Shown here one piece after another: positions 33,586-44,552 of a stretch of DNA of 64,000 bases. How positions within the stretch are numbered: position 1 is the stretch's first letter; each line of letters begins with the position of its first letter. The notes under the pieces were generated by a model. That model saw only the letters and a list, made by a program, of their open reading frames with translations. It did not search any database and had not been told where the DNA came from. The translations under genes were made by a program, and so were the position numbers. The DNA comes from Candidatus Kapaibacterium sp. (GTDB taxonomy: Bacteria; Bacteroidota; Ignavibacteria; Kapaibacteriales; UBA2268). The stretch spans positions 2,368,001-2,432,000 of the forward strand of contig OY762428.1 of NCBI GenBank assembly GCA_963665665.1, given 5' to 3'.

Positions 33586-34116
33586 TCAATTATATTCCAG
33601 CCACTTCCTTGAAAAATCCTCGAACGAACGATTCTTGGCTTTGGCAGTTTCCACCGAGAATGCCTTCATCAGTTCGTGCATGAAATCAATTCGGGAGCGG
33701 AATTTCCTGTGGTAAAGGCTGTTGAACTCTTCCTTTGTTACATTTTCAGTATTTTCATACTGGTTAATATCGAAATCCAGGGATTTTTGATGGTTCAGCC
33801 CGGCAAGATACCAGCTTTCAATTTCCATTATTACTATCGATATTTTCTTCTTATCAAGGTTGCTGAATTTATGGCGTAATATGCCTTTCTTTTCCCCCAC
33901 GCTATAATCCTCATCCTTATCAGCAGTAAAGATATAATCAAAATCAAGAGTTTGAATGCTAAGCAGGAAAAGGTTCACTTTTTCTTTTTTCATCTGGGCA
34001 TATTTAATAATTTCAACGTCGGCATAATGCTCAAGCAGTATGGGTACTATCAGCTTTTGGAAGAAACGGTGGTCATCGTTTCCTTCAACGAATACATAAA
34101 CTTTATTTAATTTCAT
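33586..34116 (-). CDS. TOPRIM-fold protein (DUF4435/DUF4276-like)
   Basis: VFVEG.DD, D.D and EIESWYLAG motifs; GGGAG RBS before ATG 34116. Confidence 0.65.
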   Translation of the reverse strand: MKLNKVYVFVEGNDDHRFFQKLIVPILLEHYADVEIIKYAQMKKEKVNLFLLSIQTLDFDYIFTADKDEDYSVGEKKGILRHKFSNLDKKKISIVIMEIESWYLAGLNHQKSLDFDINQYENTENVTKEEFNSLYHRKFRSRIDFMHELMKAFSVETAKAKNRSFEDFSRKWLEYN

Positions 34117-34521
34117 TTTATTCTCCCAACAATATACTTTTAGCCGGACGAGCAATAGGCCATTATCGTTTATTTGCCGCAACCTGACCTTTTAAAATAA
34201 AATATTCCTCCGTGCAAATTATCCCGGCAGAAGCCGAGTGTTAACTCAGATAGTTGATTCTTCCCTCTTCATTATTTCAGATATCAATTAATCTGTTTAC
34301 CATGATAGTATAATTACAGGATCGTGATATAATTTATATCAAAATTGCAACATATTATAACTTTTATTGAAAACTGCTGATTCGGAAATGAGTTTGGGGG
34401 CGGGTTAAATTATATCAATACCTTCTATATGAAAATATGCTGATCATATTATATTCCGGGATTGATTTTTTGATGTCTCAACTTATGATTTAATAATTAT
34501 GAATAAAATTAAATATTATAT

Positions 34522-34549
34522 TAAAATTAATTGCATTATTAGCCGATAT
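34522..34549 (+). promoter_or_regulatory. Sigma28 (FliA/SigD)-like promoter
   Basis: TAAA-N16-GCCGATAT about 35 bp upstream of the 34583 ATG; the -10 element matches the SigD-type consensus. Confidence 0.55.
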
Positions 34550-34582
34550 TAATTATATAAAGCTAATACTATGGAGTGATAT

Positions 34583-34780
34583 ATGAAGAAGTTAATAAAC
34601 GGAAAGCAGATAATAGACCTTAGAGGCCGGGAATCATCGGCTCCGAAAATCGATGAAAACATCAGGAAAAACCTTGATGTTGCAATACAGAAGAATCACA
34701 AATCTGCAATTAAGGTGCTTGTTGACTGGATAAAAAGTGATAAGCAGGAAGACCCTTTCGAAGAATACCGCCGATTCTAA
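34583..34780 (+). CDS. Small hypothetical protein resembling the FliF C-terminal FliG-binding helix
   Basis: GGAG RBS 6 nt before ATG; amphipathic segment LDVAIQKNHKSAIKVLVDWIKSD. Confidence 0.6.
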   Translation: MKKLINGKQIIDLRGRESSAPKIDENIRKNLDVAIQKNHKSAIKVLVDWIKSDKQEDPFEEYRRF

Positions 34781-34934: not shown

Positions 34935-37181
34935 TTATTTAAAGGCATACTCCAAAGACATTATTATTCTTCTGCCCGGCTGCGGGAGAAGAGAACTGAG
35001 CCAGCCGCTGCTTCCATGCCAAACACCGTTTTCGCTGTAATAACCGGGTTCGTTACCGGCATCGGCAGTGCGAATACCAGGATGGAAATAGTGAGTGTCA
35101 AAAATATTTTTCAGCTTGAGTGAAAGGCTGAGCCCGTGTGCCGGAAAATCTGTTATCCGCATATTCATATCTATAATCGAGTATGCATCAACAATGCCAA
35201 CAGGATTAGTAGATACTGTTTCCCGATCAGATACGAAACGCCCGAGTATTGTAAAGAACAGTTTTTCTTTCCAGGCAGCAGTAAGCCCGAAATAAAGTTT
35301 ATGAGGAGCAATATCCCCGATCGGCCCTTCCTGGTATTCGTCTTCTTTTTCAATATAAACTTCATCCCCGTTTGTATGGGTATAAGAATAATAAGCATGA
35401 AGATCAATATCAAAATTGCTAAACAAATTCAGGAAGTAATTTAATTGATAGTCTATACCGAAGATGTTTCTTTCTCCGATATTAGCGCCCCCGATATTGA
35501 AATTCAATATAGTGTTGGTATAAATTGCATGATATGCATTTATTGATTGCCGTAATTTACCGCTACTGTAGGTGATTCCTGTTTCGAAAGTGCTGCCTTC
35601 CTCAGGCTTTAATTCCGGTTCGCTGCCAAGCCCGGACCAGGAACCATAAAGAACTCTCGGGCTTGGTGCCTGGTATGCTTCGCCGTACAGCAATTTAAAA
35701 ACAAAATCAAGCCGGTTATAAATATACCCTGCCCTTAATGTTGTAGAACCGCCATATTCGGATTGATGATCATATCTTACCCCTGCATGGAAAATATGAT
35801 TTTCTGTCAGTGAATACTTCCCATTTACGAAAATTCCTTTTTCCTCGGTTACAACTCTGTTGTCGTATTTATATGCAGGATCGGGAGGATGCGGGAAGTA
35901 ATATTCATCGGCAAATACCGAATCAGGATACATATAGGGCCCGGCATATATTTCGTAAGCTTTCTGAAGGTTTTTCTGCTGATATTCAAAACCACCGGAG
36001 AAAAACAAATCAGCAATAGGGTTATAATTAAAGTTTTGGAAAAATGCCCAGCTTGAATTCACAGATTGCCATAGTTCAAAGTTTATTAGCCGGACAGTAT
36101 CGCCTGTAATTTCATCGATAGCATTGAAGCCCTGTGCCAATGCAGAGTTATTTGGTACATCGCTGCCAAAGTATCTCAGCATACTCAAACTTCTCAATGA
36201 TTCATCAATATTGATATCATAACGGGCATATATGCTGTAATCCTGTTTTGTCCAAACAACATTTGGCAGCACTTTATCGGCAGCGTACTCATTGGCATAA
36301 CCAGATGTCAGTTCATAAAACTGGCCTCCAATTTCAGCATTGCCAAGGTATGTTCTCAGGTCTATAGCCCTGTGTCTGTTCAAAGATTGCAAACCGCCAG
36401 TTGCCTTGCTGTCAACAAAACCACCCCAAAGGTCACGGTTGTTGATATATTTTGATTTAGACCATTCATAAGTTTCATTGGTTTCCGGGAAGTCATCACC
36501 GTTTTCAAAACGGGCAGATAAAGCAACCTTTATATCATCTTTCTTGTAGAAATAGCTTATATCGCCGATATATTTATCATAATTTCCAATCGATGCTTTT
36601 CCGGAAATCTCAGAGCCGTCGCTGATCGCATCTTTTTTTGTAATAATATTGATAACACCTGTAAAAGCATTCGCACCGTATATAACCGAAACCGGGCCGT
36701 AAACAACTTCAATACGTTCAATATTTGAAATCGGACAGGCACGCATTGATTCGGAATCATTATAATAGAGATCAGACCAGACCATTCCGTCTAACATCAT
36801 CAGATACGGGCTGCCGAATGAATTCCTGTAGCCGCGCATATAATTTTTAAATGAAATATCGTTATTCACACGAATAACATCCATACCCGGAAGGTCGTCA
36901 AGAATTTCAGAAAGGTCTGAATAGCCCCGGTTATTTATATCCTCACGCGAAATAACCATAACCGTAGCAGGGGCCTCGGTGGCTGATTCATAAATATTTG
37001 ATGCCGTAATAACTTTCAGGTTCAGCAATTCATCGATTGATAATTCTGATAAAGTCTTTCCGGATACTATTTCATTATCATCAGCAAACAAATTTAAAGC
37101 TGTAAACAAGATAAGGGGTATAAAAATATTTTTAATTCTTCTTATCACTACATTATCCTTTTTAATGAAGCTTAAATTCAT
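34935..37181 (-). CDS. TonB-dependent receptor
   Basis: LSIDELLNLKVITAS...EAPATV.VI; plug motif IERIEVVYGP.SVIYGANAF.GVINIIT; C-terminal NIFD...PGR...YAF. Confidence 0.9.
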   Translation of the reverse strand: MNLSFIKKDNVVIRRIKNIFIPLILFTALNLFADDNEIVSGKTLSELSIDELLNLKVITASNIYESATEAPATVMVISREDINNRGYSDLSEILDDLPGMDVIRVNNDISFKNYMRGYRNSFGSPYLMMLDGMVWSDLYYNDSESMRACPISNIERIEVVYGPVSVIYGANAFTGVINIITKKDAISDGSEISGKASIGNYDKYIGDISYFYKKDDIKVALSARFENGDDFPETNETYEWSKSKYINNRDLWGGFVDSKATGGLQSLNRHRAIDLRTYLGNAEIGGQFYELTSGYANEYAADKVLPNVVWTKQDYSIYARYDINIDESLRSLSMLRYFGSDVPNNSALAQGFNAIDEITGDTVRLINFELWQSVNSSWAFFQNFNYNPIADLFFSGGFEYQQKNLQKAYEIYAGPYMYPDSVFADEYYFPHPPDPAYKYDNRVVTEEKGIFVNGKYSLTENHIFHAGVRYDHQSEYGGSTTLRAGYIYNRLDFVFKLLYGEAYQAPSPRVLYGSWSGLGSEPELKPEEGSTFETGITYSSGKLRQSINAYHAIYTNTILNFNIGGANIGERNIFGIDYQLNYFLNLFSNFDIDLHAYYSYTHTNGDEVYIEKEDEYQEGPIGDIAPHKLYFGLTAAWKEKLFFTILGRFVSDRETVSTNPVGIVDAYSIIDMNMRITDFPAHGLSLSLKLKNIFDTHYFHPGIRTADAGNEPGYYSENGVWHGSSGWLSSLLPQPGRRIIMSLEYAFK

Positions 37182-41791: not shown

Positions 41792-42196
41792 TTAATTATA
41801 ACGCTTGAAGCTTGTTTTCAGAAATTCCTTGAAAGACAGGGATTTGTTTTCTATTTCCGGCTTAACTGATTTGTCTGTGTTCTGAATGACAGGCGTTTCG
41901 TGCTGCGCACCGAACAATTGCTCATCAACCTTAATGTTTTTATCAGAATCAGTAAGGTCTGCAATTGCATTAACGTTTCTGTCTGTAGCTCCTATAAGTA
42001 TTTTTTTTCCGGAAACTTCAACAATAAAAAGGCTGGTTTTGTTCTGAAGAGGAAGTCTGGAAACAACTTTCATAGCATTGCTTCCGGCAGGGTTTTTCAC
42101 TTTATCGGCAACTTTTTTCAACAGGAAGAATAATCCGGCTATAGCCCCTACTGATGCTATTAGCACTCCAAATGCTTTTACTATCGTATCATCCAT
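41792..42196 (-). CDS. fliO: Flagellar biosynthesis protein FliO
   Basis: Single TM, then MKVVSRLPL..K.SLFIVEV.GKKILIG.T; lies directly after fliN. Confidence 0.8.
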   Translation of the reverse strand: MDDTIVKAFGVLIASVGAIAGLFFLLKKVADKVKNPAGSNAMKVVSRLPLQNKTSLFIVEVSGKKILIGATDRNVNAIADLTDSDKNIKVDEQLFGAQHETPVIQNTDKSVKPEIENKSLSFKEFLKTSFKRYN

Positions 42197-42226
42197 GATA
42201 TTCTACTTTTTTTATTCACAGAACAA

Positions 42227-42667
42227 TTATATAAGGTTCCCTCCGCGCCTTGCAGATCTCAGCCTGTCAGCGGGGTCAACCAGGGTTGTAATACGGATAC
42301 CAAAGTGCTTATCGATAACAACCACTTCGCCTTCGGCAACTTTCTTGCCGTTGATCAATACATCAACAGGCTCGCTTACCAGCTTATCAAATTCGATAAC
42401 AGAACCGCGGCCAAGTCGAAGAATATCACGTATAAGCATATTCGTGCGGCCAAGTTCTATCGATACCGGAAGCTGCAGATCATACAATAATTCCAGTTTC
42501 GGATCAAGAGGGGAGTATATTTTATCTTCGGATCCCCCGTCCATTTCCGGGAAATCCGGGGTATCCACCGAAGTAGCTTCAGTTTCAGCTGTCGGCTCTT
42601 CGGTAGCAGCATCCTCGGCGCCTCCACTCGAGATCAAAGCATCAATTTCTTCCTGTGTCATTGACAT
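42227..42667 (-). CDS. fliN: Flagellar motor switch protein FliN
   Basis: [41 protein letters not shown]. Confidence 0.93.
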
Positions 42668-42694
42668 AATTCAAATCCTCTTCATTATGAGAAA

Positions 42695-43729
42695 TTAAAA
42701 TTCCTCGTCTTTATGTGTTATATCTTCATCTACAAGGTCTTCTTCATTTAGTTGCCTTGTAATCCTGATAGCTTTTTTACCTTCAACACTGCCGGGCCTT
42801 CCGGCAAGTTTTCTTTTACCTGCAATAGAAATTTCAATCTCCTGATTAACCCTCTTTCTGGTTTTTATAACATCACCTTCCTTCAGGTCCATTAATTCAC
42901 CTACCGTAACAGATGTTTTGGCAAGCTCTGCAATAATTGGCAGATAAGTAACAGACATTTGCTGGTTGAGTATGGACATGTTCTCTTTCATTCTCTTGGA
43001 AGACTGGGTTACAACTGATGTTGTTACCTGCTGCCTGTTTAGCCTGGCAAGAATTTCCTCGAGAGCAAAAGTCGGGAAACAAAGGTTCATCAGGAAAGTA
43101 TGGACACCAATATTTACATCGAACGAAACAACAACTACAATTTCCGAAGACGGTGCTACCTGAACAAAATCAGCTTCCATTTCAAGGCGTTGGAATGAAA
43201 ATTTCAATTCTGCTATCGAACGCCAGGCATTTCTCATGTCCGATAAAGCATGTTCAACTATACTTCTTATAACAGACTGCTCTATAGGAGTAATCGAACG
43301 GGGCTTTGTCTGGACTTCGGCGCTGCCTCCGAGAAGCCTTTCAACAATTGTCAGGGCAAGTTGCGGACTGATTTCAAGAATTCCGCTTCCGTCAGTGCCT
43401 TCAATATCAAAAACGTAAAGGCAGCTTGGGTTTGAAACAGAAAGGATAAACTCTGAGTAGAATAACTGGTCAACAGAAGTAACAGATATGGAAACCACAG
43501 TCTGCAATTTCGATACAAGGTAATATCCGAACACCTCGGCAAAACTTTCATGAACTGTTTGGAGTGTACGAACCTGGTTTTTTGATATTCTGTTTGGCCT
43601 GCGGAAATCGTAATTTGATATATCGCCCTTGGCAAGCTTCCCGTCAAGGACATCATCAACATCAACCCTTCCGCTCGTCATTTCCGAGAGTAGGCTGTCT
43701 ATCTCATTTTGTGATAAAACATCTGCCAT
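42695..43729 (-). CDS. fliM: Flagellar motor switch protein FliM
   Basis: N-terminal VLSQNEIDSLL CheY-binding motif, YDFRRPNRISK, LLGG, C-terminal SpoA domain. Confidence 0.95.
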   Translation of the reverse strand: MADVLSQNEIDSLLSEMTSGRVDVDDVLDGKLAKGDISNYDFRRPNRISKNQVRTLQTVHESFAEVFGYYLVSKLQTVVSISVTSVDQLFYSEFILSVSNPSCLYVFDIEGTDGSGILEISPQLALTIVERLLGGSAEVQTKPRSITPIEQSVIRSIVEHALSDMRNAWRSIAELKFSFQRLEMEADFVQVAPSSEIVVVVSFDVNIGVHTFLMNLCFPTFALEEILARLNRQQVTTSVVTQSSKRMKENMSILNQQMSVTYLPIIAELAKTSVTVGELMDLKEGDVIKTRKRVNQEIEISIAGKRKLAGRPGSVEGKKAIRITRQLNEEDLVDEDITHKDEEF

Positions 43730-43767
43730 TGTTCACTTTCAGGTTATCGTCCTACAAGCCTTGAAAA

Positions 43768-44418
43768 TTATTGAATAATAAACTGGTTGATCAATACATT
43801 CCTGAGATACATCCTGTTTTTAAGGAATATTGGTTTCAGATCATGCTTGAATATAACTGAGAGAGAATCCCTGTTCTCATGCAGCTGACTCTCTGACATA
43901 CCGCCAATAATATTATTGATCTTAGATCTCATCTTTGCTTCTACGATCTCTTCAAGTTTAAATTCGCCACCGTGTCCCTCTCCTTCAGCGGCTTCTTCTC
44001 CATCTTCAGCGTGAGGTTTTACCCTGACTTCAAGCCCCAGGTCTATCACAACAATCTTTGTTGACCCCTTGGGGTTTGTCATGATTTTCCCGGTTTTCAG
44101 GAAGTGCACGCCTTCTTTTTCGAACATTAGTTCTTCTTCGGTCTCATCCTCAAACTCGTCTTCGTCGTGAGCTTTTTTTTCTTTTTCGCCGTGGCCTTCT
44201 TCAGCTTCTACCTGTTCGGTTTTATTTCCTGCATTCGGGTTGCCGAGCCCATCGATGAGAAGAGGAATAAAAAGGAAATAAGTAGCTGCGATAAAGATAA
44301 TTACAATACCGAATATTACCCCGAGTACAACAGGTAATTTCATACCATCTCCGGAGGTATTCCTTTTGGGTTTCTTCGGTTTTTGTTTTTCTGTGCCTTC
44401 GTTTTTTTCTTCTGCCAT
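43768..44418 (-). CDS. fliL: Flagellar basal body-associated protein FliL
   Basis: N-terminal TM, acidic linker, TNP, C-terminal NVLINQFIIQ; lies directly upstream of fliM. Confidence 0.8.
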   Translation of the reverse strand: MAEEKNEGTEKQKPKKPKRNTSGDGMKLPVVLGVIFGIVIIFIAATYFLFIPLLIDGLGNPNAGNKTEQVEAEEGHGEKEKKAHDEDEFEDETEEELMFEKEGVHFLKTGKIMTNPKGSTKIVVIDLGLEVRVKPHAEDGEEAAEGEGHGGEFKLEEIVEAKMRSKINNIIGGMSESQLHENRDSLSVIFKHDLKPIFLKNRMYLRNVLINQFIIQ

Positions 44419-44469: not shown

Positions 44470-44496
44470 AAATCGGCATTAATCCAATAAAATTAA
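44470..44496 (-). promoter_or_regulatory. Sigma28-like promoter upstream of fliL
   Basis: Minus strand TTAA-N15-GCCGATTT. Confidence 0.55.
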
Positions 44497-44536: not shown

Positions 44537-44552
44537 TGAAATTTTCATGCCA
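44537..44552 (-). promoter_or_regulatory. Sigma54-like element upstream of fliL
   Basis: Minus strand TGGCATGAAAATTTCA (imperfect -12). Confidence 0.35.

Follow-up and report, generated by a model that had tools for sequence, protein, structure and literature searches.

Introduction

In the bacterial flagellum, FliF, the MS-ring protein, has a C-terminal tail (FliF-C) that normally co-folds with a hydrophobic groove in the N-terminal domain of the rotor protein FliG (FliG-N). C-ring assembly begins with this joining, and the joint sets a one-to-one match of membrane ring to rotor. FliG is also bound by brakes and clutches such as EpsE, YcgR or MotI, whose action is on motors already assembled and goes through other regions of FliG or through the stator. 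Another small flagellar regulator, FlgM, is a sigma-28-dependent anti-sigma-28 factor; from work in E. coli and B. subtilis, the promoters used by sigma-28 (FliA) are of the type TAAA-N15(+/-1)-GCCGATAA.

A search of the literature, made mostly at the level of abstracts, found neither a soluble FliF-tail protein nor a regulator of the joint between FliF and FliG-N. The FliF-tail module itself is known; what is new in the reading put forward here is that it would serve as a protein in its own right, free and under separate regulation. Two reports were set aside as not relevant: a preprint on C. jejuni small proteins, which concerns an outer-membrane lipoprotein (10.1101/2025.04.02.646747), and one on FlgV (PMC11607428).

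The protein is a 65 aa microprotein encoded in a 64,000 nt stretch of DNA from Candidatus Kapaibacterium sp., referred to here as the window, which spans positions 2368001-2432000 of a genome consisting of a single contig of 5.46 Mb (G000:C1). Coordinates within the window are counted from its first nucleotide, and those of loci elsewhere refer to the contig.

An isolated gene with a sigma-28-type promoter

An earlier note on this DNA had described an isolated 65 aa ORF with a GGAG ribosome binding site, and this is present exactly as claimed: the ORF listing and translation place the CDS at 34583..34780 on the forward strand, stop codon included, with the Shine-Dalgarno sequence GGAG at 34573..34576, 6 nt ahead of the ATG. 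The flanking genes, encoding a 198 aa product belonging to no Pfam family (33586-34182) and a TonB-dependent receptor (34935-37181), are both on the minus strand, hence the gene is isolated and appears monocistronic within its AT-rich spacer. No Rfam match was found between positions 34100 and 35000 (E up to 1), and a weak hairpin lies 3' of the stop codon (z -1.75), with no clear intrinsic terminator after the gene. The encoded protein has a basic N terminus and a net positive charge, and inspection of its sequence found no hydrophobic span. Residues 21-54 (34643..34744, forward strand) make up a predicted helical core, which is conserved in the paralog described below, is similar to the FliF tail and is where contact with FliG-N is predicted.

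Upstream lies a sigma-28 (FliA)-type promoter element, at 34522..34549 on the same strand, comprising TAAA (34522-34525), a 16 nt spacer and GCCGATAT (34542-34549). This is the TAAA-N16-GCCGATAT to which the earlier note had drawn attention, and it ends 33 nt ahead of the ATG. The pattern TAAA-N14-17-GCCGATAT has this single match in the window, against an expectation of 0.08, with at least one match occurring in eight of 100 shuffled sequences. The similar element said to precede fliL was also found: TTAA-N15-GCCGATTT is located at 44470..44496 on the minus strand, about 9.9 kb from the microprotein ORF and 51 nt upstream of the start codon of fliL (43768-44418, minus strand), which is the first gene of a fliL-fliM-fliN-fliO operon (41792-44418, minus strand) identified through the Pfam families FliL, FliM, FliN and FliO. 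Elsewhere in the genome, a flagellin gene is preceded by TAAA-N15-GCCGAAAA, and the candidate flgM gene also has a sigma-28-like element ahead of it. The presence of fliA itself was confirmed (TIGR02479, 208 bits, above the cut-off); it lies downstream of a ParA/MinD-like gene.

Such elements require cautious reading on a genomic scale. The strict pattern TAAA-N14-16-GCCGATA has 22 sites across both strands of the genome, compared with 14-22 in five Markov simulations; as the count is no higher than in the simulations, most of these sites are attributable to chance, and several fall within ordinary genes, such as those for IDH and YidC. For any one given start codon, the probability that a site ends 20-60 nt ahead of it is around 8e-5, and the microprotein gene and its paralog each have such a site. 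The gene therefore combines the promoter type and spacing of the sigma-28 regulon with the presence of fliA in the genome. Since the paralog has a sigma-28-type element as well, transcription of the microprotein gene is, as judged from these motifs, most likely driven by FliA.

The timing of this expression is a separate matter. Sigma-54-like elements are found ahead of another flagellin gene, and possibly ahead of fliL too, which makes the flagellar hierarchy a mixed one, and hence it is not safe here to equate sigma-28 control with late expression. The fliL-fliM-fliN-fliO operon also bears a sigma-28-like element. Hence, of the earlier proposal of a late-expressed protein, the sigma-28 element stands, whereas the late timing is less certain than was claimed. 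At least two further small ORFs without a family, of 75 aa and 115 aa, carry sigma-28 elements, implying that the regulon contains several unknown small proteins.

A second copy under purifying selection

A six-frame search of the genome revealed a second copy of the gene, encoding 61 aa, at 1940713-1940898 on the minus strand. The two proteins are 43% identical overall and share an invariant core, ID-x2-I-x-KNL-x2-AI-x-KNH-x-SA-x2-VL-x2-WIK-x-D-x4-PF. Codons 23-59, which make up the core, have a pN of 0.24 and a pS of 0.74, the latter being saturated; 21 of the 37 residues are identical, 11 of them encoded by different codons, and the other two reading frames are interrupted by stops. The excess of synonymous over non-synonymous change, the codon changes at conserved residues and the stops in the alternative frames together indicate purifying selection on the microprotein, which is a real, selected gene.

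The paralog has AAGGAGG preceding its ATG and a perfect TAAA-N15-GCCGATAA 43-44 nt before it, and on the 3' side a GC-rich hairpin followed by a T-rich stretch can be read by eye. Apart from the sigma-28-type and Shine-Dalgarno elements, the upstream DNA of the two genes aligns poorly.

Beyond this pair, the family appears confined to one genome. A word-indexed homolog search with the microprotein returned only itself, one of two candidates, the best match among 40 relatives had an E value of 0.02, with none credible, and a profile of the two paralogs run against 1.84 billion representatives matched solely the two themselves. Searches of Pfam and NCBIfam at E values up to 10 returned nothing for either paralog other than a chance-level match to Mre11 (E 0.061). 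Profile matches in the PDB to RecA, aspartate dehydrogenase and Pho23, with E values of 0.03-0.16, were judged to be chance. Identity with FlgM was considered and rejected, neither protein matching PF04316 or TIGR03824 at E values up to 10; the likely FlgM of this genome is a 91 aa protein encoded after fliC-fliS-fliD-flaG (TIGR03824, E 0.0013).

Likeness to FliF's C-terminal tail

The core of the microprotein is amphipathic, following the pattern I-x3-I-x3-L-x2-AI-x2-NH-x-SA-x2-VL-x2-WI-x2-D. The C terminus of FliF in E. coli K-12, ...NDPRVVALVIRQWINNDHE, contains the motif DP-x9-W-I, and the microprotein segment NHKSAIKVLVDWIKSD reads NH-x9-W-I-x2-D, as does that of the paralog. The FliF-type spacing with His in place of Pro that had been noticed at first reading is thus borne out, as NH-x9-WI-x2-D against the DP-x9-WI-x2-D of E. 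coli FliF. The genome also encodes a FliF of 599 aa with a tail of its own, as the earlier note had thought worth confirming; this tail, ...TEEALMKLEIKEKVQKYMDSDTEEAVKLVKMLLSQD..., is conserved across 62 distinct FliF C termini from the lineage, and in an ungapped alignment the hydrophobic positions of the microprotein coincide with those of these tails. The source names of the closest FliF proteins point to a lineage like Ignavibacteria, Kapabacteria or Bacteroidota. Hence the amphipathic helix, the hydrophobic register and the Trp-hydrophobic pair of FliF-C are all found in the microprotein. It is not classed as a FliF, because it stands alone, has no hydrophobic span and occurs in a genome whose FliF retains its tail.

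Profile comparisons with hhalign, using the two paralogs as a profile, aligned residues from about 25 to 58 without gaps and in the same register for every comparator, giving P values of 0.034 against the 62 own-lineage FliF tails, 0.011 against the E. coli tail and 0.003-0.005 against a stand-alone FliF-tail family described in the next section. The accompanying probabilities are low (1.5-9.6%), and the P values are modest and were no better with a comparison family of 44 sequences than with one of 13. Independence of the tests from one another cannot be assumed, since the comparators are homologous to each other, as are the two paralogs.

The scores were set against null sets. None of 516 random 63 aa segments from the long ORFs of the genome reached the score of either paralog, the maximum among them being 15.2 compared with 15.5 and 18.5 for the paralogs. 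Among 230 composition-matched shuffles, three reached the score of the microprotein and none that of the second copy. An unrelated 75 aa ORF preceded by a sigma-28 element, used as a negative control, gave hhalign P values of 0.31 and 0.65. On these sequence comparisons, the likeness in pattern to the FliF tail is of a kind that chance would give in about 1 in 100 to 1 in 500 cases, a similarity short of what would establish homology to the tail.

Single-sequence and HMM searches gave nothing comparable. When a FliF-tail HMM was run against 54,699 six-frame ORFs of the genome, neither paralog was among the 921 matches with E values up to 1000, and BLASTP of the microprotein against the FliF of the same genome aligned an unrelated region (E 0.20). 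In the comparison with FliF C termini suggested in the earlier note, the predicted segment and register were thus recovered, weakly, by profile alignment, whereas HMMER found nothing. Searches of this kind have little power for FliF tails, given that the genuine tail from this genome, searched against the PDB at E values up to 10, has four matches and no FliF chain among them; the profile of the stand-alone family likewise finds no FliF chain in the PDB. FliF tails evolve fast.

The ESM Atlas, which compares language-model features without alignment, places clusters named 'FliF family' close to both proteins. For the microprotein, the first and third ranks are held by such clusters of 68 aa and 72 aa (scores of 0.89 and 0.88), and for the paralog the second and third ranks are held by clusters of 69 aa and 68 aa (again 0.89 and 0.88). 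As these scores fall below the tool's line of 0.9, the clusters are treated as leads only.

A stand-alone FliF-tail family in the same lineage

A clearer example of a free FliF tail is encoded elsewhere in the genome. The FliF-tail HMM ranks FliF itself first and, second, a stand-alone minus-strand ORF of 61 aa (G000:C1:4736818-4737000; E 0.011), which sits directly after a 427 aa ORF that reads by eye as dihydroorotase-like. Small ORFs of 62-88 aa matching this protein, all of the same family, are present in 12 of 40 relatives; FliG was found in 11 of these 12 genomes, the twelfth being 82% complete. A further search identified 37 database proteins in the family, of 58-88 aa (E up to 0.01), the named ones being mostly 'hypothetical protein', and the family as a whole is found, unannotated, in Ignavibacteria, Kapabacteria and Bacteroidota genomes. 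Several members directly follow a dihydroorotase-like gene. No sigma-28 element was found within 200 nt upstream of any of the 13 members checked.

Used as a query, the 61 aa protein also matches the C terminus of FliF, with an E value of 0.0024 in its own genome and more weakly in three relatives, and hhalign of the family profile against FliF tails gives P values of 1e-5 to 2e-5 and probabilities of 77-82%. This match between a conserved stand-alone family and FliF tails indicates that free FliF-tail proteins exist in the lineage. Neither the microprotein nor its paralog is among the 37 matches to the family profile with E values up to 0.01; the two are either very diverged offshoots of this family or convergent look-alikes.

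Predicted structure and complex with FliG-N

The AlphaFold2 (AF2) monomer model of the microprotein, made from a two-row alignment, has a mean pLDDT of 70.5, with residues 1-20 disordered, a helix over residues 25-52, a short helix over residues 60-63 and no strand. The model thus has one long main helix and not two, which counts against the likeness to the FliF tail.

Folding with the N-terminal domain of this genome's own FliG, one of the checks that the earlier note had put forward, passed the mark set by the tool, as a prediction only. The complex was predicted from FliG(1-115), with a 29-row alignment drawn from relatives, and residues 18-65 of the microprotein. The ipSAE values were 0.65, 0.66 and 0.69 (median 0.66), compared with 0.01 for the best of three controls, neither of the two partner controls being a matched amphipathic helix. 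Among solved complexes 116 of 157 attain the pass mark, as do two of 215 mismatched pairs. At least 79% of contacts were common to the runs, and the partner pLDDT was at least 66.

The predicted interface comprises residues 21-24, 27-28, 31-32, 34-36, 38-50 and 52-54 of the microprotein. Residues 38-50 all touch FliG-N in the model, and those between 21 and 36 do so with helical periodicity. The contacts whose expected error is lowest include those of A42, V45, L46, W49 and I50, residues invariant between the paralogs, which in the model meet FliG residues 13-21, 32-36 and 63-70.

Complexes of FliF-C with FliG-N have been solved, as 5TDY from T. maritima and 5WUJ from H. pylori, according to two articles (PMC8956890, PMC7355467). 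Because of this, the pass shows likeness to the solved complexes, not binding, and it may come from that likeness alone. Binding of the microprotein to FliG-N is therefore a prediction of the modelling.

A candidate decoy for FliG

The explanation that we favour, tentatively and at slightly less than an even chance, is that the microprotein is a sigma-28-controlled decoy, an unattached mimic of the FliF tail by which FliG-N is capped. It would be a soluble protein of 65 residues, with a disordered basic N terminus and an amphipathic helical core, and would be switched on by FliA activity. The core, whether copied from the FliF tail or only resembling it, would occupy the hydrophobic FliG-N groove, and FliG so capped would be unable to dock on the MS ring. 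Hence, whilst FliA was active, the pool of FliG available for new rotors would be smaller, which would feed back on flagellar number or turnover. We infer that the microprotein competes with FliF, that its effect is inhibitory and that it depends on sigma-28 in vivo; that it should inhibit, as opposed to help, rotor assembly is likewise something that we infer.

The alternative that survives best, unlikely in our estimation and yet to be taken seriously, is that this is a small protein of the sigma-28 regulon with another target, its resemblance to the FliF tail being a chance one between amphipathic helices. It could act on FliA or FlgM, or on an export chaperone, or could be a late export substrate by way of its disordered N terminus. 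Consistent with this are the weak sequence similarity to FliF tails, with hhalign probabilities of at most 9.6% and no similarity found by HMMER, the capacity of predictors to fit helices into the exposed groove of FliG-N, for which a like complex has been solved, and the family-less ORFs of 75 aa and 115 aa that share sigma-28 elements. However, the complex score with FliG-N is far above the controls, and for both paralogs the names of the Atlas neighbours point to FliF and to no other flagellar family. The role of FlgM itself appears to be taken by the separate 91 aa protein (TIGR03824, E 0.0013), and neither paralog matches the FlgM models (PF04316, TIGR03824) or, one chance-level exception apart, any Pfam or NCBIfam family at E values up to 10.

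An improbable alternative accepts that the microprotein binds FliG-N and has it help, as a holdase that would keep free FliG folded until hand-over to an MS ring, or during subunit exchange. The same predicted binding would serve this role as well as that of a decoy, and FliG-N needs FliF-C to fold. The fliL-fliM-fliN-fliO operon has a sigma-28-like element, hence the microprotein may be made together with parts of the C ring and not after them. Against this, docking of FliG would first require removal of the tail that fills its groove, and no sign of a hand-over mechanism was seen here; furthermore, the Trp of the microprotein, compared with the Leu or Met of FliF tails in the lineage, would suggest tighter and not transient binding.

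It is very improbable that the protein is a DNA-binding repressor of the ribbon-helix-helix type. Such a pattern can be made out by eye in both paralogs, as a strand-like SVSVI, a first helix, the H-x-SA motif and a second helix, but the AF2 model has no strand and one continuous helix over residues 25-52, so the fold is not that of a ribbon-helix-helix protein and the idea was abandoned; in addition, no RHH, CopG or Arc family was matched at E values up to 10, and the PDB profile search returned no RHH protein. That the gene is a chance, non-functional ORF in an AT-rich spacer, as the lack of a homolog outside its own genome and of a clear intrinsic terminator downstream might suggest, is scarcely credible when the paralog shows frame-specific conservation alongside saturated synonymous change, when both copies have Shine-Dalgarno and sigma-28 elements and when the second copy has, by eye, a GC-rich hairpin and T-rich stretch downstream.

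Returning to the decoy, it may be one instance of something broader. It is conceivable, although we regard it as doubtful, that soluble copies of the FliF tail constitute an undescribed class of regulator acting at the joint of the MS ring and C ring, with three of them in this genome. This doubtful reading is a joint one: the copy after the pyrimidine gene, conserved in Ignavibacteria and Kapabacteria, would be old and constitutively placed; the microprotein and its paralog would be young copies, rewired to sigma-28 and having gained the Trp; and the Thermodesulfobacteriota proteins of 68-72 aa named 'FliF family' would be further members. The gained Trp, which is absent from the lineage's own FliF, might allow the young copies to win FliG-N from FliF after FliA has been released. 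On this reading, decoys of the FliF tail would be a recurrent means of setting flagellar number or recycling rotors.

If the decoy reading is correct, a free tail under sigma-28 control would provide feedback at the level of protein, by which the signal that a flagellum is finished stops or slows the making of new rotors. It would then bear on how cells set the number of their flagella beyond FlhF and FlhG, and would represent a structural peptide that has been copied and turned into a regulator. The idea is readily testable, as the genes are small and number two, the partner is known and a point mutant suggests itself.

Comparison with known systems

The nearest described module is FliF-C. 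The microprotein shares with it a helical segment of around 35 residues with the same hydrophobic register and, as in the E. coli tail, the spacing (N/D)(P/H)-x9-W-I-x2-D; the prediction has it occupy the groove of FliG-N likewise, whilst the sequence similarity between them is too weak to establish homology. The two differ in that FliF-C follows the second membrane helix of FliF, whereas the microprotein is not attached to an MS-ring protein, has no membrane helix and is preceded by its own sigma-28-type promoter; it also has His where the tail has Pro, and is net basic where FliF tails are acidic.

Members of the stand-alone family are, like the microprotein, small and soluble, and the cores align in the same register (P 0.003-0.005). 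This family is conserved across genera, whereas the microprotein and its paralog occur in one genome only; its members have Leu, Met or Ile at the position of the Trp, and the 13 checked have no sigma-28 element, unlike the two genes described here. Among named proteins, the nearest to both paralogs are the Thermodesulfobacteriota FliF-family clusters of 68-72 aa (0.88-0.89), which are of similar length; these belong to a different phylum, score below 0.9, carry automatic names and are likened to the paralogs by language-model features alone.

FlgM resembles the microprotein in being small, partly disordered and preceded by a sigma-28-type promoter, but the microprotein has no match to the FlgM models and the 91 aa FlgM candidate is separate, in the fliC-fliS-fliD-flaG cluster. 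Finally, EpsE and YcgR/MotI are not copies of the tail of a structural partner, unlike what is proposed for the microprotein; what they would have in common with it is the concept of regulation through binding to FliG, the rotor protein.

FliF-tail-like and other small ORFs

A stand-alone gene resembling the FliF tail, the C-terminal segment of FliF that binds FliG, lies outside the window at G000:C1:4736818-4737000 on the - strand of the single-contig genome (L044:2818-3000, in the stretch handled as L044). The core of its 61-aa product matches FliF C-terminal tails when the family profile is compared with theirs (hhalign P 1e-5, probability 82%), and the gene is directly preceded by a 427-aa ORF that, judged by eye from its sequence, would encode a dihydroorotase. 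Among 40 relatives, 12 conserve the protein as ORFs of 62-88 aa, and FliG is present in 11 of these 12. Its database relatives number 37, mostly named 'hypothetical protein' where the source gives a name. A sigma-28 element was found upstream of none of the 13 members of this stand-alone family that were checked.

Such an element, TAAA-N16-GCCGAAAT, is present 36 nt upstream of a 115-aa ORF, also outside the window (G000:C1:3099599-3099946, + strand), in which a stretch of 19 residues, KVFNKVEQFMDLGTSSKVD, matches the first helix of the FliF tail (hhalign P 4e-4). The FliF-tail HMM, a profile of FliF tails, ranks this ORF third, with an E value of 0.1. A perfect TAAA-N15-GCCGATAA lies 40 nt upstream of the start of a third ORF outside the window (G000:C1:2224687-2224926, - strand; L039:1187-1426, in the stretch L039), which has a Shine-Dalgarno site and encodes 75-79 aa rich in Gln, Glu and Pro; no family could be assigned to it, and it does not resemble the tails of FliF (P 0.31 and 0.65).

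Within the window, the divergent neighbour of the microprotein gene is a 198-aa ORF (33586-34182, - strand), for which Pfam gave no family at E values up to 0.01.

Flagellar regulation

The cluster fliC-fliS-fliD-flaG-(FliT-like), outside the window, is closed by a 91-aa ORF that is probably FlgM (G000:C1:2066798-2067073, + strand; L038:6798-7073, in the stretch L038). TIGR03824 detects it weakly, under the cut-off (E 0.0013, 19.5 bits), and Pfam PF04316 did not match it either in a six-frame search or directly; 144 nt upstream, within the preceding ORF, is TAAA-N15-GCCGATA.

Approximately 120 nt upstream of fliL lies a sigma-54-like element, TGGCAT-N5-TTTCA (window 44537-44552, - strand), in a region that also carries a sigma-28-like element. 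With TGGCAC-N5-TTGT found at one flagellin near G000:C1:1460112, outside the window, flagellar control in this genome therefore seems to be mixed, combining sigma-54 and sigma-28.
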